Positions 2,544 through 25,627 are shown, counted from the first letter of the stretch. The stretch: 32,162 bases of DNA from a virus (IMGVR_UViG_3300032231_000014:1-32162), one strand, 5' to 3'. Made by a program: numbers and translations. Notes: generated by a model not told the origin, from the letters alone.

Positions 2544-3455
2544 TTAGCTCGCGCCGCTCGAACCGAATGCACCACGGTAGTCGGACCAGCCGAAGCTGTA
2601 CCGCTCACGCGCCTTGTAGCGCATGTTGCCCGTCTCGAAGTCGCCCTCTACACCACGCTGGATGTTCTTCCGCACAAAGTGCTTCAGACCGTCCATTGCA
2701 TCGGTGATCAGGAACCACGCATTCGGGTCCGTCAGGCGATGATTCTCGAAGGATCCACCGGGGACCTTGCCCTTCGACTTGAGCGCGTTCACGTCGTTGT
2801 CAGCAGTGCCGGGGCGATACTGACTGGCCATGATACGCTCTGAGACGAAGCCCAGATCAGACGGAGTGATCAGCCGCAGAGGCGTGGCAGCAATGTTGAT
2901 GCCTCGCTCATCGACCCACTTGGAGATCTGGATGCAAGCCTCTTCGAGAGAGGTCTCGCTCAGGTCCGCCTGAGTGGTGAACGTATTGGACTGAGTACCA
3001 CCACCCCACAGAGGGTGAGCAGTGGAGAACAGCGGCACGTTGTCACCGCCCGGGAAGGCAGCGTTGAAACCGTTGTTCAGGATGGCAGCGCCTTTGACTT
3101 CCTTGGTGTGAACCATGGAACGAGCCAGCGCCTTGCTGTACTTCGATCCAAGGGAACCGTAAAGGTTGTCTTCTTCCGCTTCTTCCGTGAGCGCGAATGC
3201 CAGAGCAATCGTCTCGTGGTTGTAGCGGGAGACGTATGCCTCACCACCGGAGTCGTAGGTGACCGGAGCGCCCTCAGGCTTGACCGGAGCACCCGCCAGA
3301 CCGGCGAGCAGTACGTCTTCTTCGTACGCTTTCTCTGAAGACTCGACCTCGAAGATCGGCTTCCATTCCTGAGCGTAGCGCTTGTACTCCATCCCGAAGA
3401 CGGTGTTGAGCCCCTCTTGGAGCTGGCGACGGAAAGTCGCGCGATTCATAACCAT
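2544..3455 (-). CDS. Major capsid protein (HK97 fold, Mu gpT-like family)
   Basis: 303 aa from ATG 3455 with AGGGGAG SD; motifs LQEGLNTVFGMEY, KPEGAPVTYD, KALARSMVHTKE, LFSTAHP, DFETGNMRYKARERYSFGWSD; position after the scaffold. Confidence 0.9.
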   Translation of the reverse strand: MVMNRATFRRQLQEGLNTVFGMEYKRYAQEWKPIFEVESSEKAYEEDVLLAGLAGAPVKPEGAPVTYDSGGEAYVSRYNHETIALAFALTEEAEEDNLYGSLGSKYSKALARSMVHTKEVKGAAILNNGFNAAFPGGDNVPLFSTAHPLWGGGTQSNTFTTQADLSETSLEEACIQISKWVDERGINIAATPLRLITPSDLGFVSERIMASQYRPGTADNDVNALKSKGKVPGGSFENHRLTDPNAWFLITDAMDGLKHFVRKNIQRGVEGDFETGNMRYKARERYSFGWSDYRGAFGSSGAS

Positions 3456-5839: not shown

Positions 5840-6217
5840 TTAGACCAGTTTCTTGCGGTACATCTCCGGGTCAGCGACACCGGCCAGAATGTGATCGTCG
5901 TTCATCAACTGAAACGTACGACCATCGGCCAGCTCGATGCGCTGTGAGCCATATGTCGGATAGAGCACCCAGTCCCCAACGGCAAAGCGGGAGTCATCGA
6001 ACTTCTCCCCCTCGAACGCCTTGGGACCAACCGCGACGACCTGACCCACCTGATTCACAAACTCCTGATCACGCTGCACTTTTTCAGTGAACACGATCCC
6101 CACTTCCGATTCTTCCTTCGGTTGAAGCGGCCTGATCAGCACCCGCCAGAGGGTTGGTGCCGGTAGCTCGGCCCTGATCTCCTCGACCGGGGGCTTGAAC
6201 TTGGTCTCTCCGCTCAT
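5840..6217 (-). CDS. GroES/Cpn10-like co-chaperonin
   Basis: PxPTLWRVLIRP...GIV...GQVVAVGPKAF...VGDWVLY..YGSQ...LMNDDHILA matches the GroES pattern. Confidence 0.88.
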   Translation of the reverse strand: MSGETKFKPPVEEIRAELPAPTLWRVLIRPLQPKEESEVGIVFTEKVQRDQEFVNQVGQVVAVGPKAFEGEKFDDSRFAVGDWVLYPTYGSQRIELADGRTFQLMNDDHILAGVADPEMYRKKLV

Positions 6218-9106: not shown

Positions 9107-10735
9107 CTATGCGTAAATTGGTCCGCGCTGCTTCACTGAGCGCATCAGGTTTACTTCTTCGTCGTCGTCTTCGTCGAGATACTCAGCGTTCCAACGACGG
9201 CGCAACCAGAGCGCGGTCATGGTGACCGTATCGACTAAATCGTCGTGTTCATCGGTCGGGAAGTTAGCACACTGGGTCCTGACTTCCTCAGACCATTTTC
9301 TCGGCACGTACCAGATACAGCCCCGCTCCAACACCAGCGACGCAGCATGTGCCCGTGACCACTTGGAGTCGGTGACCTTCACCTTGGTGACTGGCAGGCC
9401 GGCACGTTTCAGCTCCTGAATCAGCGAGTGGCCGCTGGCCTTCTTCTCGATCAGGATGCGGTCAGGCTTCCACTGCTCAGCCGACCGCTTGGCCTCTTCC
9501 CTGAGATCGGGGAACGAGAGACGCTCGTTCATCCGCTCCAGCAGCAACGCACAGAATCGAGGCTGACCAGCGAAGCGCAACTGCCACGGCAGGTCCGGGC
9601 TTGGCATCTCCTTCCACTCGAAGATGCCCCACGTGGTGCGCGCACTGTAATCGTTCTCTTCCTCTTCCTCGAACGCTGTGTCGTAGGCTTGAATGATCAT
9701 GTCGAAGGGAGGCATCTCACTGTCCTCCCACTTCCGCCAGTGGTTCAGCTTGAGGATGTTGCCGCCCTCGGCAGATGGGTTCTGCTGGATCTGTGCCTCG
9801 AACGCCCGGCCTGTCAGCTCACGCTGCAGCTTGGCCATCTCGTCTGGGCCAAATCGCTTCGGTGCCAACAGCTCGTCGTCCTTCTTTCGCCAGTCCTGCC
9901 ACACCCTCTCGCCCTTCCTGAGCGGCTCCCTGAAGCGATCCAGCTTGGCTGGGGGCTGAGTCTTCGGGTCATGCGGCCTGCCTGTCTTGAGCGCCGTGGT
10001 AACGCAGTGGGTCTTCCTCCGGTAGTACCCGGGCAGGTTGAGATGAACCCAGCCGCCCTGCTGCAGGCAGTACCCCGGGAGATCCTGATGGTGACCACGC
10101 TGGGCAATGATCACCCGGCCAAGGCGCTTCGGGTTATTGCCCCGAGTGGACATGACGTTCGACCACCAGTCGAGCACCCCCTGCCTGACCGTATCGGAGT
10201 TGATCTCCTTCATGTTGTGAGCATCGTCCACGACGATCTTATCGCCACCCTCACCCGTCGCCGTACCGCCCACCGAGGTGGCCAGCCGGTATCCATTCCT
10301 GTTGTTGTCGAACCTGCCCTTCTGGTTCAGGTCACCGGAGAGGTGGAAGACGTGCCCATACCGCTCCTTGTACCACGGGCTCTGGATCAGTCGCCGGCAC
10401 TTCACTGAGTCCCTGATGGTCAGGCTTTGCGCATAGGTGCTGAACAGCCATTGCTCCGATGGGTTCCACGTCCACTCCCATGCAGGCCAGATGACTGAGG
10501 ACACCGTGGACTTCGAGTGCCGTGGCGGGATGTTGATGATCAGGTCGTCGATGTCCCCGAGCGAGACGAAGGTCAGGTGATCACAGATTGCGTCGATGTG
10601 TGGCCCACCAACGAACGGAGCGCCCGGCTCCACTGTCGGCCACGCACCCTTGACGAACTGGCGCATCTCTCTGCGCATGTTCTCGGCCTGCACCATGGTG
10701 TAGCCCGAATACAGATCTTCCGCCGTCGCACTCAA
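9107..10735 (-). CDS. terL: Terminase large subunit
   Basis: Walker A-like INIPPRHSKST, Walker B KIVVDD, coupling motif IIAQR, RNase H-like QAYDTA and HDDLVD; TTG start overlaps the upstream TGA. Confidence 0.93.
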   Translation of the reverse strand: MSATAEDLYSGYTMVQAENMRREMRQFVKGAWPTVEPGAPFVGGPHIDAICDHLTFVSLGDIDDLIINIPPRHSKSTVSSVIWPAWEWTWNPSEQWLFSTYAQSLTIRDSVKCRRLIQSPWYKERYGHVFHLSGDLNQKGRFDNNRNGYRLATSVGGTATGEGGDKIVVDDAHNMKEINSDTVRQGVLDWWSNVMSTRGNNPKRLGRVIIAQRGHHQDLPGYCLQQGGWVHLNLPGYYRRKTHCVTTALKTGRPHDPKTQPPAKLDRFREPLRKGERVWQDWRKKDDELLAPKRFGPDEMAKLQRELTGRAFEAQIQQNPSAEGGNILKLNHWRKWEDSEMPPFDMIIQAYDTAFEEEEENDYSARTTWGIFEWKEMPSPDLPWQLRFAGQPRFCALLLERMNERLSFPDLREEAKRSAEQWKPDRILIEKKASGHSLIQELKRAGLPVTKVKVTDSKWSRAHAASLVLERGCIWYVPRKWSEEVRTQCANFPTDEHDDLVDTVTMTALWLRRRWNAEYLDEDDDEEVNLMRSVKQRGPIYA

Positions 10736-19248: not shown

Positions 19249-19779
19249 TTAGATTTTCCCGTGCGCGGCAGTGAACGCTGTGCAGATCAGCGCTCGCCTG
19301 CGAATTCGGCCAATAGAGGGGCGAACTCCGTGAAGGATTTTCCCATCGACCAGCACACCGAAAGTCGGGATACACGAGATGGTGTGAATTTCGTTCGCTA
19401 CGTCGTCGTGGACGGTCGTCTCGCCACCCTCTTCAGGACAGGAGACGTAGAAGATCAGTGTGCGTCCATGGTCCCAGCCATGACGATGCGGGAAGCCCTG
19501 CACCCAGTTGCGAGTGGCGTCGGTGCGACTCTGCTCGTCGAGGACTGAGATCCACCACTTGTAGCCTGACGCCGGGTAGCCCAGCTCCTTGAACACGGAC
19601 TTGGCCCAATCCTCGAAGCCAAGCTCTTTGGGCGGCGGGCGCTCCATAGTGTGGGCACCCTGCACTCGATCATTGTTGATCTTGGCCCACTCTTCGTCGA
19701 TGTAGTTAGCCATAGCCTGCAGAGGAGCGTCGTCCCAACGCACCTCGGTGTAGAGCGGAGTTGCCTTCACCAGTTCCAT
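19249..19779 (-). CDS. Putative 2OG-Fe(II) oxygenase (DSBH fold, HxH variant)
   Basis: PHRH...TLIFYV...EGGET...LVDGKILHGV...RRAL: metal ligands, GG motif, distal His and 2OG-binding Arg. Confidence 0.72.
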   Translation of the reverse strand: MELVKATPLYTEVRWDDAPLQAMANYIDEEWAKINNDRVQGAHTMERPPPKELGFEDWAKSVFKELGYPASGYKWWISVLDEQSRTDATRNWVQGFPHRHGWDHGRTLIFYVSCPEEGGETTVHDDVANEIHTISCIPTFGVLVDGKILHGVRPSIGRIRRRALICTAFTAAHGKI

Positions 19780-19837
19780 ATCGAAGTCCTGTCGAAAGAG
19801 TGCGGGGGCACGTCATGTGCCCCCTGTCTCTGTTAGC

Positions 19838-20531: not shown

Positions 20532-21062
20532 TCAGTTTCCTCGTTGCAGGTTTGCGGGTACTTGCTGGGCCACCAATGCAACTCTTGGTGATCCCTCCCA
20601 GTTGTGGAAGCCGTGTTCCAGCTTCCCGTCGAACACCACAGTCAGCCCCTTGTGAGGTCTCACTACACAGGGCTGATCGAGCGGCTCTCCCCAGACGACA
20701 AGCGGAGCGCCCGCGCCGGGTTCGAGGTAATGCACGATAGACCTGTAGGCATAACCGTGAGTGTGCGGATAACCGTCTGCCCATGCTGTCTCGGGCAGGC
20801 CGGCCATGTGTTTGGTGACCACTGCGTAGAGGTTGATCTCTCCCACCTCTGGGTACGGACCCAGCACCTGCAGGACGTGCTGACGAAACGCGCTCATTGC
20901 CGGCCCGTCCCAGTGGTCAATCACGCAGCTCCCGGGGGAGTTGATGATCGGCACGTGCTCCTGCCTGACCTTGGACATGAGGTCGCCCCACGCATACGCC
21001 GGATAGTCCCACTCGTGAGTGGTTACCATCATCTTGGCATCATGGTAGGGCGCTATGTCCAT
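20532..21062 (-). CDS. Putative 2OG-Fe(II) oxygenase (DSBH fold, HxH variant), paralog of 19249-19779
   Basis: PHTH...SIVHYL...GLTVVFDGKLEHG...RVAL. Confidence 0.7.
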   Translation of the reverse strand: MDIAPYHDAKMMVTTHEWDYPAYAWGDLMSKVRQEHVPIINSPGSCVIDHWDGPAMSAFRQHVLQVLGPYPEVGEINLYAVVTKHMAGLPETAWADGYPHTHGYAYRSIVHYLEPGAGAPLVVWGEPLDQPCVVRPHKGLTVVFDGKLEHGFHNWEGSPRVALVAQQVPANLQRGN

Positions 21063-21316
21063 CAGCCGTTGATGTCCGTCTTGACCCGGCCAGTGCCGAG
21101 AACGTCGCCGTCCTCATCCACCAGTCCCACCTCGCGCACAACCTGCACCTCGCGAGAGTCGCCCAGCAGAACCTCACCAGCGACAGCGGGCACCCCGTCA
21201 TCAAGCTCAATTGACCACGCCCTCGCGCCCTCATGGCGGGTTAGCAGGTTGATCACGTTGCCGACATCCTTGTGCACTCCCTGCACGTTGCCGTCTATCA
21301 CTACGATGTAGCTCAT
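21062..21316 (-). CDS. Hypothetical protein
   Basis: 84 aa; coupled on both sides. Confidence 0.6.
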   Translation of the reverse strand: MSYIVVIDGNVQGVHKDVGNVINLLTRHEGARAWSIELDDGVPAVAGEVLLGDSREVQVVREVGLVDEDGDVLGTGRVKTDING

Positions 21317-21441
21317 CGCGGTATCACCTTGTTCCTGATCTCATCCCACAGGTTGCGAGCCCAATCAGGCTTCTCGCACACAACCCACCCAGTGCCGAAG
21401 CCTGCCGCGAAGGACAGGCCGACAATCAGCATCGTGCTCAT
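21313..21441 (-). CDS. Small single-pass membrane protein
   Basis: Hand-translated 42 aa MSTMLIVGLSFAAGFGTGWVVCEKPDWARNLWDEIRNKVIPR; ATGA overlaps at both ends. Confidence 0.6.
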   Translation of the reverse strand: MSTMLIVGLSFAAGFGTGWVVCEKPDWARNLWDEIRNKVIPR

Positions 21442-21707
21442 GCGGCAGCCGGGGGCGCGTCGTCACCGCCCGTCGCCTCTGTGTCAGTCGAGGGTTGGTC
21501 GGAAGATGGGGAGCCATCCTCGACTGTATCTGGCTCTCCGTCCTTTGGCGCTTCACCAGCCGGTGCCGGCACCTCAGACAGCACGGTCAGCCCGCCAGCG
21601 AACATCGCCTTGAACTGCTCCTTGGCGTCGTACTTGCTCTCAGCCTCGACCACTTCTTCCATGGCTTCGCCTGCTTCACCATATCCCTTTCCCTTGAAGT
21701 AGGGCAT
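21438..21707 (-). CDS. Hypothetical protein with acidic low-complexity tail
   Basis: 89 aa from ATG 21707 with AAGGAG SD. Confidence 0.6.
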   Translation of the reverse strand: MPYFKGKGYGEAGEAMEEVVEAESKYDAKEQFKAMFAGGLTVLSEVPAPAGEAPKDGEPDTVEDGSPSSDQPSTDTEATGGDDAPPAAA

Positions 21708-21708
21708 C

Positions 21709-21807
21709 TCATCTTCTCCTTTGGCCAATCGGCCTCTCACGTTGTGACGCTGGCCGCCCTACCGCATTCAAGCGGCGACGCCCAGCCTCGATTTCTTCTG
21801 CGCTCAT
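21709..21807 (-). CDS. Small basic peptide
   Basis: 32 aa MSAEEIEAGRRRLNAVG...; ATGA overlap with the upstream ORF and fills the gap exactly. Confidence 0.4.
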   Translation of the reverse strand: MSAEEIEAGRRRLNAVGRPASQRERPIGQRRR

Positions 21808-22034
21808 GTCTTTTGGGTAGACCCATGGCTTTCGTCCACCACAAGTAGAGCAGGTCTCATCCCATACAGTTCTTCTATCTCCGCACCCGACACAGTACGC
21901 GGGCTCCTCTCCGTTGTTATGTCGAACGCCAGCCTCTGGAACCCCTCCATGCCGAGCCTGTTGATCAGCTCCTTCTGCCATTCCGGTAGCGGCTCCCCGC
22001 TCACCATCTCCAAGTAAGCCGTCAGCTCCATCAT
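21804..22034 (-). CDS. Mini-protein with terminase/helicase-like Q-motif and Walker B fragments
   Basis: 76 aa; GEPLPEWQKELI and GMRPALLVVDESH; ATGA-coupled. Confidence 0.6.
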   Translation of the reverse strand: MMELTAYLEMVSGEPLPEWQKELINRLGMEGFQRLAFDITTERSPRTVSGAEIEELYGMRPALLVVDESHGSTQKT

Positions 22035-22645
22035 GAGTACGAGAGGGACGCTCTATTGTCCCAGATATTGTCGAAGTTAGTATTGCCGTCCGCCCACTCC
22101 GTTGCGAGGTCATCGTTGCCACCTACGTCTGTCGTCACGGTGATGCGGCTCATGCGCCATACCGCCACGCTTGTCACGCTCCCTGCTGCAGCCTCGCCCT
22201 TGTAGATGATCTGCGGGCTGCCACCCTCATCGTCGATCTGTGTTGCCAGTGTCACTTCACCAATCCTCGAAACGAACGTCCACGTGGTGGGTCCGGTCTT
22301 CTCGTAGATGTCTCCGGCGGTCGTATTGTCCCAATAGGTATCTCCCGGATTTCCAGTCCCCGCACCGGGTGGACCTGCACCCTGAAGAAAGCTGAGCCCA
22401 TCACTGCCATTGACTCCGGGTATGCCGGGTATGCCTTGGCTGCCCTGCTCGCCTGGCTCTCCCTGAGGCCCTGCAGGACCCCGTGGAGGTACTGTGCTGC
22501 CCTCGCCCTCGTCATAGCCCTCCTCATAGGCTCTCCAGCTCCGAGGGACGGTGTCGATGTTGTACGGGTTCTCACGTGGCCTTCCGAACACTCCGTCGTT
22601 GTACCCGGTCTGAAACGCTATACGCTCCTGTCCTGAGTACGCCAT
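22031..22645 (-). CDS. Collagen-like repeat protein with RMF-like N-terminus
   Basis: Gly-X-Y run, then a GxPxxxxGxxGDxYxD..GxxYxK...W motif and a C-terminal YxGEA...VWR...WADG...WDNRASLSY domain. Confidence 0.75.
   Translation of the reverse strand: MAYSGQERIAFQTGYNDGVFGRPRENPYNIDTVPRSWRAYEEGYDEGEGSTVPPRGPAGPQGEPGEQGSQGIPGIPGVNGSDGLSFLQGAGPPGAGTGNPGDTYWDNTTAGDIYEKTGPTTWTFVSRIGEVTLATQIDDEGGSPQIIYKGEAAAGSVTSVAVWRMSRITVTTDVGGNDDLATEWADGNTNFDNIWDNRASLSYS
22397..22480 (-). repeat. Collagen (Gly-X-Y)9 repeat
   Basis: GPAGPQGEPGEQGSQGIPGIPGVNGSDG. Confidence 0.9.
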
Positions 22646-22647
22646 GA

Positions 22648-22839
22648 CTAATTTTCCTGAGCATCAACACTTTGTGGTAACAGCGGCTCCAGTAAGAGCC
22701 TCACTCGCTCTGCTGCCTTCCAGTCGTCGTACAGCCCCCCTCCGCGCTCCACGTCATGGAGCCGCTCCTTGGCCAGCGAGTACAACCTCTGCAGGTCATG
22801 AGAGTCCACCTCTACGGTAGTCTTAGTCGCTGTCGCCAT
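22648..22839 (-). CDS. Hypothetical protein
   Basis: 63 aa ORF filling the operon. Confidence 0.55.
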   Translation of the reverse strand: MATATKTTVEVDSHDLQRLYSLAKERLHDVERGGGLYDDWKAAERVRLLLEPLLPQSVDAQEN

Positions 22840-23044
22840 CTTCGCTCTCTGGTGGTATCAGGATGATCTCTCTTGTCCCGCACTTCATGCACTCGGTCGG
22901 AATGGCCTTGTGCTCCTTTCCCAGCCACGTGGAGTAACTTCGCCCGTCCCACTCTCCGCGTACGCCATCGCTGAGCCCGCACTTATGACAGTCGGCCACC
23001 ACGATATTAGGTCTCTCGTCGCCTTTCTTGCCTATCGCACCCAT
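22823..23044 (-). CDS. Zinc-ribbon protein
   Basis: CHKC...CMKC pairs; TGATG coupling. Confidence 0.6.
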   Translation of the reverse strand: MGAIGKKGDERPNIVVADCHKCGLSDGVRGEWDGRSYSTWLGKEHKAIPTECMKCGTREIILIPPESEDGDSD

Positions 23045-23328
23045 CAGCTCACCTTCACCCGCAGCCAGCCGGTGGGGCCTGGTATGTCTGGGCTGGCCGG
23101 CAGTGTGAATACCCTGGCTGCCACGTTCTCCTTGGTCGCCCGCATCGAGTCAGCAAGCGCCTTACCCATGGCGTCTGAGTACGCCTCTCGGTCATAGGGG
23201 ATCGTTGCGCCCTCTCTCTTGGGTTGAGCCATGCCGAACAGTGCCACGCCGTCGTCATTCACACGGCCCTTGAGCACCCCAGCCACAGCCATGACGCTCA
23301 CACCACGCAGAAATCCTCGCCTATTCAT
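23044..23328 (-). CDS. Twin-arginine-motif mini-protein containing major-capsid-like segments
   Basis: MNRRGFL + hydrophobic stretch; KREGATIPYD and KALADSMRATKE match the window's MCP. Confidence 0.7.
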   Translation of the reverse strand: MNRRGFLRGVSVMAVAGVLKGRVNDDGVALFGMAQPKREGATIPYDREAYSDAMGKALADSMRATKENVAARVFTLPASPDIPGPTGWLRVKVS

Positions 23329-23915
23329 CGGTCCACACTCTCGTCCCAGTCAAATTCCGGCAGATCGAGCGGCGTCTCTCTCACCTTCGTGATCGAACCC
23401 TGCGGGCCTATCGTGTCAGGAGCCACAAATCCCGGCCACAACTGGACCTCCCTGCCATCAGGGAGCTGCGCCCTCACTGAGAAATCGTCCTTTCCCCCCT
23501 TGCCCTCCACATTCTCTACAGAGCATGTCTCTTCCATATCGACCCGCTGGTGTGTCTTGGAGCCGGGGATGCTGTGGATCGAGACCGCATCCTGAGCACC
23601 TTCGACAACAATCCACTCGGTCAGGCTGCCCTCTGCGCGCTTCCTGTTGCTCCATGATGCCCTCGCGGTCATGCGTACGTGGCGTTGCTGGGTCTCGAAG
23701 TCCTTCCACTGCTGGGTCTGGGGCCTTCTACGCCACATGGCGATGGCTGGCTTCTGCCCTTCCACGCGCTCCGTGAGCTGGTGCACAAACTCCGCCAGAT
23801 GCTCATCGGTGTACTCGGTGGGATCGACATCACACACCGCCGTGAAACCGCAGTAGCCGTCCTCAACCTGAGGATCGCCCGCCGCTATGTACCTGATTGC
23901 CAGCCCGTAGATCAT
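23325..23915 (-). CDS. Hypothetical protein
   Basis: 196 aa; ATGA overlaps at both ends. Confidence 0.65.
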   Translation of the reverse strand: MIYGLAIRYIAAGDPQVEDGYCGFTAVCDVDPTEYTDEHLAEFVHQLTERVEGQKPAIAMWRRRPQTQQWKDFETQQRHVRMTARASWSNRKRAEGSLTEWIVVEGAQDAVSIHSIPGSKTHQRVDMEETCSVENVEGKGGKDDFSVRAQLPDGREVQLWPGFVAPDTIGPQGSITKVRETPLDLPEFDWDESVDR

Positions 23916-24067
23916 TTCCGCTTCTTCCCTCTGCGCTCATGCTTGCCGGTAACCGGCCTGTCCGGGTGCTGCGAATTGTAGATGCGCGCCGCCTTGGTCT
24001 TTGCGGCCTTGCTGCTCATCCCCTCGGAAATGAACTTGTCGCGCATCTTCTCGTAGCCGCGTGGCAT
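23912..24067 (-). CDS. Small basic protein
   Basis: Hand-translated 51 aa MPRGYEKMRDKFISEGMSSKAAKTKAARIYNSQHP...; coupled on both sides. Confidence 0.65.
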   Translation of the reverse strand: MPRGYEKMRDKFISEGMSSKAAKTKAARIYNSQHPDRPVTGKHERRGKKRK

Positions 24068-24270
24068 TAGCCCTTCTTCTCTCGACCACGGCCCATAGCA
24101 TGTCTCACGCCTGCCATGTCCACCCCACCAGTGGATGAATGCTTGCTGCCACCGCGCTCAGCCCGCTCTCTCGATGCCGGCTTGGCCTTGGCCTTGGCCT
24201 TCTTGCCGCGCTTGGCTGCTGCAGTGCCTGCGCCTTGATCAAACTGCCCAAACTCTCTCTGTCTACTCAA
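24067..24270 (-). CDS. Lys/Arg/Ala-rich small protein
   Basis: TTG start overlapping the upstream TGA; 67 aa, KRGKKAKAKAKP. Confidence 0.5.
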   Translation of the reverse strand: MSRQREFGQFDQGAGTAAAKRGKKAKAKAKPASRERAERGGSKHSSTGGVDMAGVRHAMGRGREKKG

Positions 24271-24533
24271 TGACTTATGCTCCCCGCTGGAATTACGATT
24301 TTGCTGCCGGTCTCGGCCTCCATCTTCTCCCTGTGAGCGTTGTCCACCATGCCTTTCAGGACGTTGTACATCTGCCACACCGCATACTGCGCTGGCGTCA
24401 TATCCTCCGTCTTCTGCGGAACCGGGTCGTCCTCACCCAGCCCGAAATCAAAAGCGAACTCGAAATGCGTGTCGTCGGGCTCAGCGCCCTCTGGCAGATC
24501 GAGGTCATTCACCATCAGGTAGCAGCGCGGCAT
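24267..24533 (-). CDS. Hypothetical protein
   Basis: 88 aa from ATG 24533 (TGATG coupling), MPRCYLMVNDLD...MTPAQYAV. Confidence 0.6.
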   Translation of the reverse strand: MPRCYLMVNDLDLPEGAEPDDTHFEFAFDFGLGEDDPVPQKTEDMTPAQYAVWQMYNVLKGMVDNAHREKMEAETGSKIVIPAGSISH

Positions 24534-24751
24534 CAGGGGTTCACCGCCGACCTTGAGAGATCCACCTTGCTCCCTCCCACCAGCCGGCCCACGCTCCCAT
24601 CCGAGCGAAGGCTCTTCCTGCCCGGCGGCAGAGACAGCATGTGTAGCTGGAAATTCCTTGCAAATTCGCGCTCTGATGGGGTGCTGTCTTCGATGCACGA
24701 CGGACAGATGCTCCTGTTCGTCGGTCCCAGACACATGTTGCATTCGTTCAT
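24533..24751 (-). CDS. Zinc-finger-like small protein
   Basis: CNMC...CPSC; ATGA overlap with the terS stop. Confidence 0.55.
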   Translation of the reverse strand: MNECNMCLGPTNRSICPSCIEDSTPSEREFARNFQLHMLSLPPGRKSLRSDGSVGRLVGGSKVDLSRSAVNP

Positions 24752-25317
24752 GCTGCCTCCGTTGCTGTGCTGTCGATGGCCTTCCGGTCCATCGCTCTCT
24801 CCATGAGCGAGGCGATCTCGTCCAGCTCGTCCTGCTCCATCTCCTCGAACGGGTTGCCCTTGCTCTTGGCTCCGTCCTTGGCTCCGATCCCGTAGTGCTC
24901 ACCCAGCCTGCCGAGAGCCGCCATCTTGTCGTGGAACTCGTAGGTGAACTCCTGCACCACCTCGCCCTCATCGTTGGGGCGCATGGTGCGGATGTTGATT
25001 TTGCTGATGGCCATCTTCTGCTGCTCGGTCAGCTCCTCTGGGGGCTTGGCGACGTACACGCCATCAACGATCTTGAAGTAGCTGTCCACCCGGTTCAGGG
25101 CTATGGCTGCCAGCTCGGTCAGAACCCGGCCAGTGTCGAGCACCATCTGCTCTTGAGCCCGCTCCATCAGCCAGTTGATCTGCTCCTGAACGTGCGGTCG
25201 GCGCAGGATGGACGCGCCGTTGCTCTGCGGGCTCTTGAACCCGGCTGCCTTGGCTGCCTTGGAAGCGTTGCGCTCCTTCACATACGCCATGCAGAAAGCC
25301 AGCTCACGAGTGTTCAA
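24748..25317 (-). CDS. terS: Terminase small subunit
   Basis: FCxxYxxxxNASKAAxAAGF...LxxPxVxxxI...RVLxELAAIA...DKMAALxxLGxHxG pattern of the Terminase_2-type TerS. Confidence 0.88.
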   Translation of the reverse strand: MNTRELAFCMAYVKERNASKAAKAAGFKSPQSNGASILRRPHVQEQINWLMERAQEQMVLDTGRVLTELAAIALNRVDSYFKIVDGVYVAKPPEELTEQQKMAISKINIRTMRPNDEGEVVQEFTYEFHDKMAALGRLGEHYGIGAKDGAKSKGNPFEEMEQDELDEIASLMERAMDRKAIDSTATEAA

Positions 25318-25571: not shown

Positions 25572-25627
25572 TTGACACGGCTTCCAAGGGAAGCTACATT
25601 CCAGCGTATCCGGCTTCCATCGGAAGC
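25572..25627 (+). promoter_or_regulatory. Sigma70 promoter P1 with two GCTTCC-N3-GGAAGC operators
   Basis: TTGACA 25572-25577, 17 nt, TACATT 25595-25600; palindromes at 25580-25594 and 25613-25627. Confidence 0.8.

Follow-up and report, generated by a model that had tools for sequence, protein, structure and literature searches.

The window analysed here, a viral sequence of 32,162 nt from a sediment phage (IMGVR_UViG_3300032231_000014), carries a gene for a 94-aa protein in which a putative twin-arginine (Tat) leader is followed by short, reordered pieces that derive from the phage's own major capsid protein. The combination of such a leader with pieces of an own virion protein has been shown to recur across unrelated phages, in which it is patchy and accessory. 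Tentatively, the 94-aa protein is proposed to be a membrane-targeted bait for a host factor that recognizes unassembled virion proteins, a real possibility to be held with some reserve. A literature search for this gene class, at the level of listings and abstracts, found no description.

Among the 618 stop-to-stop ORFs of the window, this gene was the top non-self match to a profile of 58 related capsid proteins (E 0.0015). Conversely, when 18 related records were scanned with a profile of its homologues, the region of the genuine capsid gene was recovered in all 18. The preliminary description had read the gene as an internally deleted version of the major capsid protein. Its derivation from the HK97-fold capsid family of its own phage is confirmed, with a correction: the gene is not a plain internal deletion but consists of a Tat-type leader and then, in this order, capsid residues 136-147, 58-67 and 107-124, the segments being placed by hand (Table 1). 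The 136-147 piece is plainly visible in the homologues P0008, P0022, P0025 and P0039. About 40 of the 302 capsid residues are represented, and complete, ordered A- and P-domains are absent. The model of the source capsid protein (pLDDT 80.5) aligns with the HK97 capsid 1OHG over 233 residues (Z 13.7, rmsd 4.3), and places the E-loop hairpin strands at residues 43-50 and 70-78 and the spine helix at residues 98-126. The segments retained across the family are the predicted E-loop tip, the spine helix with its following loop, and the N-arm, while capsid positions 150-199 are present in only 1-2 of 46 family rows and positions above 200 in none, in a set whose capsid coverage is biased because it was seeded with the 94-aa gene. 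For the 94-aa protein, AlphaFold2 predicted two helices, of which one is confident, and placed a helix at residues 47-75; the tertiary fold was of low confidence (pLDDT 62, pTM 0.29), although the heterogeneous 46-row alignment may depress these values. A complex prediction of residues 17-94 with the capsid protein gave an ipSAE of 0.00 in two runs without controls, which is uninformative on binding. A tblastn search of INPHARED with the 94-aa gene gave no match, single-sequence locus scans of viral contigs gave no loci whether the query was the mini-capsid gene, terS or the 76-aa ORF, and PDB sequence searches returned nothing useful. Runs X3 and X4 gave no coverage of the mini-capsid gene, which carries no weight. 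All Atlas feature matches were below 0.9 and were treated as leads.

Table 1. Features of the window discussed in the text.
Feature	Coordinates	Strand	Evidence or remark
Major capsid protein (family from which the fragments come)	2544..3452	-	PF25209, phrog_371
Terminase large subunit (TerL), excluded as origin of the 76-aa ORF	9107..10735	-	phrog_38 E 5e-77
Run of 13 coupled ORFs	21313..24751	-	variable accessory region
76-aa leaderless ORF whose residues 43-73 (21816-21908) form a weak Walker-B-like terminase segment	21804..22034	-	12.0 bits
Collagen-repeat protein, 204 aa	22031..22645	-	tail/collagen PHROG matches; region marker
Tat-leader/capsid-fragment mosaic, 94 aa	23044..23328	-	capsid profile E 0.0015
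Residues 56-73 = capsid residues 107-124, predicted spine helix	23110..23163	-	10/18 identical; profile positions 103-134
Residues 37-46 = capsid residues 58-67, predicted E-loop hairpin tip	23191..23220	-	6/10 identical; profile positions 41-69
Residues 25-36 = capsid residues 136-147, loop following the long helix	23221..23256	-	6/12 identical
Putative twin-arginine leader, residues 1-20: RRxFL motif, apolar stretch, basic residues	23269..23328	-	TIGR01409
196-aa ORF, no assigned function	23325..23915	-	one distant homologue, at another site in G003 (E 1e-4)
51-aa basic ORF, DUF7218-like	23912..24067	-	PF23855 E 0.0067, under cut-off
88-aa ORF, no assigned function	24267..24533	-	near terS in 8/8 near-complete relatives
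Terminase small subunit (terS)	24748..25317	-	PF03592 E 1e-19
Remaining ORFs of the run: 72, 67, 73 (Zn-ribbon-like), 63, 32, 89 and 42 aa	within 21313..24751	-	no detected homologue

The leader, the most conserved part of the 94-aa protein, had been overlooked in the earlier reading. It scores 18.4 bits against TIGR01409 (cut-off 16.7) and 13.4 bits against PF10518, under the cut-off of 22.7 for that model. RRxF is conserved in 45 of 46 family rows, the core is moderately hydrophobic (mean Kyte-Doolittle 1.8) and a basic c-region residue is found in 33 of 46 rows. In 21 leader pairs, pS ranged from 0.49 to 0.91 and pN from 0.12 to 0.30, with pN/pS well below 1 in all 21, indicating that the putative leader is under purifying selection. 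Conservation in orthologous pairs was 73% in the leader, 66% in the capsid-derived parts and 60% in the linkers (capsid vs linker p 0.03), and the capsid pieces are under weaker constraint than the leader. Since the capsid-derived parts are conserved only slightly above the linkers, the leader may be the working part. The central idea behind the preliminary description, that a small gene made of virion-protein sequence is maintained by selection, is borne out for one gene and reaches a large family. We infer that the leader engages the Tat translocase. With a Tat leader, the 94-aa protein fits poorly with a plain soluble cytoplasmic titrator.

In other phages, 39 homologues of identical build (67-131 aa) were found. 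Of 52 RRxF-leader matches, 39 reach at least 6 bits on the capsid profile, compared with 0 of 52 reversed controls, and 13 carry other passengers behind a similar leader. Leader ORFs were also found by motif alone (n=21). At E<=0.01, six of these match a protein in the record they come from, namely five major capsid proteins of different families and one virion structural protein, and none matches another record at this threshold; 15 have no own-record match at E<=0.01, and seven of their records are 9-24% complete. The passenger of P0050 corresponds to an SU10-type capsid (E 1.6e-8), and that of P0046 weakly matches a tail tube. Segments are out of order in 13 of 21 multi-segment rows, and another codon is used at 179 of 296 identical passenger-capsid residues. 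Late-operon timing, which the preliminary description offered as a reason to expect decoys, fails as a general argument: of nine other phages, seven have the leader-fragment gene and the cognate structural gene on opposite strands, and in four of these the former adjoins DNA polymerase, primase, helicase or exonuclease genes. The leader-fragment gene is outside the structural transcription unit in seven of the nine. Copies within head operons are found in G036, between terL and portal, and in G008, before portal.

In the window, the gene is one of 13 minus-strand ORFs (32-204 aa) located between terS and an 84-aa ORF, an oxygenase-like gene and a vWA gene. The coupling of this run, reported earlier as about 13 tiny ORFs, is borne out. 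Between terS and the 84-aa ORF there are 14 junctions, every one of them tight, with overlaps of 1 or 4 nt in eleven, an overlap of 17 nt in one and gaps of 1-2 nt in two. The word tiny suits most of the ORFs but not two of about 200 aa. A promoter and terminator scan gave sites not above shuffles and no minus-strand promoter upstream of terS, so that a single late transcript across the run is not established. The claim of a conserved cassette did not survive comparison with relatives. Gene content of the terS-adjacent region varies in every relative, a comparison with 176 loci at E<=0.05 leaves 8 of the 13 ORFs without a homologue, and only two are regularly kept (7-8 of 8 near-complete relatives). 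A mini-capsid gene is present in this region in three of the eight near-complete relatives and was not found there in the other five. The 204-aa collagen-repeat ORF is full-length in seven of the eight and partial in one, and shows 7 synonymous and 1 nonsynonymous strain differences (8 classified); it is likely a virion protein and not a fragment. The DUF7218-like ORF has homologues in two of the eight and in L159, and the 196-aa ORF had no match to structural-protein profiles. The further mimics that had been suspected among the other 11 ORFs were not detected in database and profile searches; when 335 small ORFs were scanned with profiles of 18 window genes, the sole matches reaching 10 bits were to terS and to capsid-derived minis. 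The window's own mini-capsid gene scored below 9 bits in that scan, which used a narrower capsid profile. The best explanation for the other 12 ORFs appears to be that they are unrelated accessory genes at a shared insertion-tolerant site, not one decoy system.

The second ORF singled out earlier, a mini-terminase of 76 aa, keeps a weak Walker-B-like segment and loses its proposed relation to the TerL of the window. The segment (residues 43-73) scored 12.0 bits against the Walker-B region of a profile seeded with terminases (20 sequences), rank 1 of 273 small ORFs and exceeded by 0 of 1000 shuffles, with a terminase family that was picked after the motif was noticed. It is identical to terminase L387 at 12 of 24 positions. 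Of two smaller terminase profiles, one gave 4.1 bits and the other, a 5-sequence variant from which a key member was missing, 1.8 bits (rank 6). Further terminases were sought in two class-wide genome searches, which added one new sequence, and a two-motif PSSM trained on three sequences was uninformative. The window's TerL was ruled out as the source by BLASTP (best E 0.42, no match) and by its own-family profile (-2.6 bits, rank 59 of 273, with 144 of 1000 shuffles as high). The ORF has no GK[ST] (Walker A) motif and no nuclease domain (no Terminase_6C match), no match in Pfam, PHROGs, INPHARED, PDB or the collected loci, and only rows at E>=0.1 in an INPHARED tblastn search. Its Atlas feature score of 0.82-0.83 is a lead only. 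Homologues are absent except for a 97% variant, and the two strain differences, both nonsynonymous, are too few to judge selection. Derivation from a terminase has a chance somewhat short of even, and the ORF is possibly a leaderless terminase-motif mimic in its own right.

As a bait, the 94-aa protein would be taken by its leader to the Tat translocase, where the capsid pieces would serve as linear or helical epitopes, not as a folded capsid domain. These epitopes would bind a host sensor, protease or chaperone specific for unassembled virion proteins, conjecturally a host defence factor. The bound factor might then be disarmed by tethering at the membrane or by removal from the cytoplasm through Tat 'hitchhiker' export, and disarming of this kind would also account for an incomplete ligand that does not set off the sensor. 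Bacterial sensors are reported to target these virion-protein classes, with capsid, portal, tail tube and further virion proteins acting as immune triggers (PMC13581612, available text), so baits for them would be useful, and co-export of signal-less partners by Tat is described in the available part of PMC4273604. The TIGR01409 match, the near-invariant RRxF and a pN far below pS all support the bait. So do the passengers, which are swappable and yet drawn from virion proteins. The frequent location outside the structural unit would suit a product that precedes the trigger, and fits an assembly helper less well. On the other side, Avs7, Avs8 and Avs10 bind the folded A-domain, as far as the available text describes (PMC13581612), whereas the mini-proteins omit this domain and, as modelled, have no confident fold. 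Simple export would also strip a decoy from cytoplasmic sensors, and in the late region of the window the head start over the capsid protein would be short. A broader version, in which many unrelated phages use a portable Tat leader fused to copies of their own capsid or tail proteins to drag an epitope-gripping sensor to Tat, where it is expelled or immobilized, is rather doubtful.

Several other explanations have to be weighed against the bait. The protein could bind the capsid or scaffold itself, so that assembly intermediates are capped, held back or anchored at the membrane; this would be aimed at co-infecting related phages and satellites, or would tune the phage's own head assembly. The kept pieces are predicted subunit-contact elements, passengers match own-family and not foreign proteins, and some copies lie in head operons. 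A self-matching poison in the phage's own late operon would nevertheless damage the phage, the segments are often shuffled, and the gene is dispensable for assembly, being absent from the searched region of five of eight relatives; this reading is unlikely. An equally unlikely one has the leader do the work by occupying or jamming host Tat or by anchoring in the membrane, leading to envelope change, superinfection exclusion or altered lysis timing, with the passenger as export-incompetent filler from recombination with nearby or abundant structural genes. The stronger conservation of the leader, the other passengers in a quarter of the RRxF matches and the tandem copies with differing passengers in L158, L160 and L054 agree with it. 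Arbitrary filler, however, would not favour capsid proteins so strongly across unrelated families, nor would it explain capsid residues kept despite codon turnover or a leaderless capsid-helix ORF in G001.

That the pieces are exported and work beyond the cytoplasm, by blocking incoming virions in the periplasm or by signalling to kin, is improbable. This reading could draw on an AxA that follows the leader in 38 of 46 rows (a count made without a chance control; AxA is frequent by chance in alanine-rich leaders), on the basic c-region and on the weak tail-derived passengers, but most passengers are capsid segments, which periplasmic factors would presumably not meet during infection. The reading from which the work started, a single cassette of 13 soluble decoys for several structural triggers with late-operon timing, is very improbable and largely refuted by synteny in relatives. 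Its tight coupling and the presence of a clear capsid mimic and a weak terminase-motif ORF within 1.5 kb are set against variable gene content, the lack of detected further mimics and a 76-aa ORF with only a near-identical variant. Least credible is functionless debris of illegitimate recombination among structural genes. Patchy presence and the G001 copy, which is perhaps decaying, would agree with debris, and the codon pattern could also follow recent capture from a diverged donor; intact coupled ORFs with a shared leader in dozens of lineages, the low leader pN/pS and the 60-73% identity kept in all parts of orthologous pairs argue against it.

How phages cope with bacterial sensors, which read conserved virion proteins that phages can hardly alter, is an open question. 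Recurrent, selected genes made of own structural sequence and a host export signal would be a candidate set of answers, each naming its epitope. If the broader version of the bait is true, the passengers would form a genome-wide map of epitopes read by bacterial immunity, including undiscovered sensors that bind outside the capsid A-domain. If instead the capsid or the leader is what matters, the genes would represent an undescribed phage-phage assembly interference or an undescribed phage use of Tat.

The 76-aa ORF shares its Walker-B-like segment with the large terminase ATPase (PF03354 / Terminase_6N type), and is unlike it in having neither Walker A nor nuclease domain, in not belonging to the window's TerL family and in having no homologous family found. 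Satellite capsid-interference proteins are encoded by small mobile-element genes and affect virion assembly. Tail-assembly-inhibition (Tai) systems are likewise small mobile-element genes acting on virion assembly (PMC11364771, available text), as the protein would if it bound the capsid. A Tat leader and self-derived shuffled fragments are absent from the available text on Tai (PMC11364771). The satellite proteins are not known to have them. Avs7, Avs8 and Avs10 grip their folded target via large surfaces, according to the available text (PMC13581612), and the mini-proteins hold mostly other segments. Another parallel is DSAD1 of SPbeta/phi3T, which competes with the tail tube protein for DSR2 (PMC11087589, available text); a phage protein at the trigger-binding site of a structural-protein sensor is the mode proposed here by analogy. 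For DSAD1, the available part of that source mentions neither an export leader nor an origin in the trigger gene (PMC11087589), whereas the 94-aa gene has visible capsid descent. The leader resembles Tat signal peptides (TIGR01409, PF10518) in its RRxFL, moderately apolar core and basic c-region, and PaoABC and HybOC are known hitchhiker cases in the available text of PMC4273604. Known Tat substrates carry folded host enzymes, while the passenger here is a short viral capsid mosaic without a confident fold, whose export is predicted from sequence.

The preliminary description placed about 13 tiny, mostly coupled ORFs behind terS; the count of 13 was confirmed for the stretch from terS to the 84-aa ORF, where each of the 14 junctions is either an overlap or a gap of 1-2 nt, but sizes of 32-204 aa show that not all of them are tiny. 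One of these ORFs encodes a 94-aa protein; when the window's 618 ORFs were searched with a profile built from 58 related major capsid proteins (MCPs), it was the top non-self match (E 0.0015; runner-up 2.2). This supports the proposed capsid descent, but the gene is a shuffled mosaic behind a leader rather than an internally deleted MCP. Its order, an anatomy revealed by the homologues, is the leader followed by MCP residues 136-147, 58-67 and 107-124, with 6/12, 6/10 and 10/18 residues, respectively, identical to the phage's own MCP when the segments are placed by hand. Residues 1-20, a leader absent from the preliminary description, satisfy a curated twin-arginine (Tat) signal model. AlphaFold2 predicted the leader helix and a single confident helix, with no confident tertiary fold.

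A family search with a profile built from 8 sequences resulted in 64 hits, namely 52 with an RRxF leader at the start, 10 N-terminal pieces of true MCPs and 2 without a start. Of the 52 RRxF hits, 39 (67-131 aa) reached 6 bits or more against the MCP profile, compared with none of 52 reversed controls. Other passengers, the passenger being the remainder of the protein behind the leader, are present in 13 of the 52; that of hit P0050 consists of SU10-type MCP pieces (E 1.6e-8), and that of P0046 gave a weak tail-tube match. The model predicted for the window's own MCP resembles HK97-type capsids (1OHG: Z 13.7, rmsd 4.3, 233 aligned), and what we take to be its E-loop, spine helix and A-domain are named by position. 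Among 46 aligned rows, a set seeded with the window gene and biased towards its segments, MCP positions 100-129 are retained in 30-35, 50-69 in 17-18, 130-149 in 10-15, 1-40 in 1-3, 150-199 in 1-2 and those beyond 199 in none. Segments are out of order in 13 of the 21 multi-segment rows.

A DNA pattern restricted to the leader identified 44 viral loci, and in 28 of these there is a leader ORF no longer than 206 aa. The passengers of 21 of these 28 (L114, L117, L118, L133, L148, L151 and L152 were omitted) and of three ORFs found by homology (L111 and two in L054) were each compared with 3314 ORFs drawn from 23 records. At E<=0.01, six of the 21 motif-found passengers had a protein match within their own record (1.9e-13 to 2e-4), with one further at 0.037, and none had a match in a foreign record at that threshold. 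If the count is limited to the 14 records with a completeness of 60% or more, it is 6/14; the remaining 7 records are 9-24% complete. The targets are five MCPs from different families and one 147-aa virion structural protein. All three added ORFs also match their own record, and two of them match each other's MCP, which belongs to the same family. Therefore, fusions of a like leader with pieces of a phage's own virion proteins recur in unrelated phages.

In locus L054 (phage genome G008), leader genes at 1613-2211 and 2540-2944 lie in tandem, immediately upstream of the portal gene. In one, which matches its own MCP at E 1.4e-9, capsid pieces from the C-terminus and the N-terminus have changed places; the other copies a stretch of the gene that follows the MCP (E 0.006), and a nearby ORF with no evident leader has capsid-like pieces (E 0.018). 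In G009, the mini-capsid gene adjoins one for a 173-aa leader protein (L081:802-1323) that is similar, at 26% over 120 aa (pairwise E 0.005), to the N-terminus encoded by that phage's own counterpart of the 879-aa gene. Two provirus records hold orthologous 109-aa leader proteins (L116:5001-5330 and L153:5001-5330; pS 0.82 vs pN 0.18), whose passenger is phrog_3540, of unknown function; these proviruses are possible experimental entry points. The leader motif also starts long repeat-motif proteins (up to 788 aa) and proteins of T4-like-looking contigs (L119-L122, L142; L114, L118, L124, L127, L133, L147, L148, L154), which presumably resemble internal or ejected virion proteins and may point to the leader's origin or a second use.

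Purifying selection on the mini-genes, a point raised earlier, is clear for the leaders, with pS of 0.49-0.91 against pN of 0.12-0.30 (21 pairs, 7 leaders), and extends in part to the capsid pieces; the 76-aa ORF has two strain differences, both nonsynonymous and too few to judge selection by. Passengers and cognate proteins use different codons at 179 of 296 identical residues, with 62% identity over the first two codon positions and 36% over the third, in a comparison where local alignment favours such a pattern and one segment enters twice; the pattern could also stem from capture from a diverged donor. In the fairer test, 19 disjoint pairs of related mini-proteins admitted only with linkers at least 30% alike, leaders were 73% identical, MCP-derived parts 66% and linkers 60% (p 0.03). 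Judged from these sequence comparisons, the leader-fragment genes are functional, with constraint strongest on the leader and the capsid pieces only modestly favoured.

For the 76-aa ORF, regarded earlier as an internally deleted terminase, no match to the phage's own TerL and no homologues beyond a 97% variant were found. What stands is a weak Walker-B-like segment: residues 43-73 scored 12.0 bits (rank 1 of 273 small ORFs, 0/1000 shuffles) on a terminase-seeded profile of 20 sequences, from a family picked after the motif had been noticed. Two 5-sequence profiles gave 4.1 bits (1/1000 shuffles) and 1.8 bits (11/1000), and the Q-motif-like N-terminal stretch did not score on its own in any profile test. 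The ORF is quite possibly, though not probably, descended from a terminase of a foreign family.

The 13 ORFs do not behave as one conserved cassette. In eight near-complete relatives (G001-G006, G009 and G010), terS and the long fibre-like genes are in every case separated by a run of small genes, which varies in content. The 88-aa ORF is kept in 8/8, the collagen-repeat gene in 7/8 plus one partial copy and the 51-aa ORF in 2/8; for 8 of the 13 ORFs, no homologues were found in 176 loci. The mini-capsid gene is accessory, occurring in the region in G003, G009 and, leaderless, G001, and next to the collagen gene in L158 and L159; of 14 loci with a full collagen gene (some partial or redundant), 4 have one, the G003 copy being weak by profile. 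The G001 copy (L249:4078-4272) is a 44-aa version of the capsid spine helix whose capsid match continues upstream of the ATG; none of the three frames showed a leader. The collagen-repeat protein ends in 60-70 residues that match no Pfam family; relatives of this part occur in 337 viral stretches and, among bacterial and archaeal genome assemblies, in 67 loci, mostly of Bacteroidota. The leader gene is opposite in strand to its cognate structural gene in 7 of 9 other phages, and in four phages it lies beside polymerase, primase, helicase or exonuclease genes. The design therefore does not include a place in the late operon, and the timing proposed for decoys was not upheld as a general feature.

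The window is the entire 32-kb contig of the record, and near kin have complete genomes of ~64-74 kb. The gene order across 22028-24149 is not an assembly artefact, as a contig from a second sediment study covers this stretch with 3 differences; the two studies date from the same year and may be a single campaign. A 65-kb relative (L317) binned in a Desulfuromonadales MAG weakly hints at such a host. The two oxygenase-like genes have homologues in G003 and match no Pfam family, their label resting on the preliminary description and a reading of motifs. A chaperonin handling capsid protein is one possible candidate partner of the capsid pieces.

Features of the window around the leader-fragment gene and the head genes
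Feature	Position	Strand	Remark
MCP gene	2544-3452	-	HK97-type model
GroES-like co-chaperonin	5840-6217	-	within head operon
terL, portal, scaffold-like gene, SU10-type adaptor		-	same strand as terS
Oxygenase-like genes, vWA gene, then two long unannotated genes		-	between flagged region and terL
Oxygenase-like pair	19249-19779; 20532-21062	-	176 aa each, on either side of vWA gene
Hairpin, 9 bp, GC-rich	19804-19824		in gap after vWA gene; could be transcript end between accessory region and terL
76-aa ORF	21804-22034	-	
Collagen-repeat gene	22031-22645	-	204 aa
Mini-capsid gene	23044-23328	-	94 aa
88-aa ORF	24267-24533	-	
terS	24748-25317	-	flagged region follows
Sigma70-like promoter (10/12)	25572-25600	+	at strand switch; unannotated plus-strand gene run downstream

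We infer that the leader engages Tat and that the capsid pieces act in an epitope-like manner. The leader would bring the mini-protein to the membrane, and the capsid pieces would bait a host factor that detects virion proteins in unassembled form; this membrane-targeted bait is the favoured reading, proposed tentatively. Interference with assembly would fit the retained pieces, which include subunit-contact elements (10.1101/2022.09.09.507160), and is considered unlikely. Jamming of Tat, to which the dominance of the leader as the part under constraint points, appears similarly improbable.

No description of phage genes joining a Tat leader to virion fragments was found in the literature searched, which covered few subscription papers and no supplements, and the term 'decoy' in 10.1101/2023.04.06.535777 refers to host decoy immunity. 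The gene class falls outside the known kinds available for comparison. For the membrane-targeted bait, published work describes virion proteins as the main triggers of Avs sensors (PMC13581612), DSAD1 as a precedent for the competitive block of a virion-protein sensor (PMC11087589) and signal-less bound partners that can be carried by Tat (PMC4273604). The specific weakness of this reading is that the three known Avs capsid sensors grip the folded A-domain (PMC13581612), a part almost never present in the mini-proteins, and the partner of the bait would therefore need to be a factor other than these.
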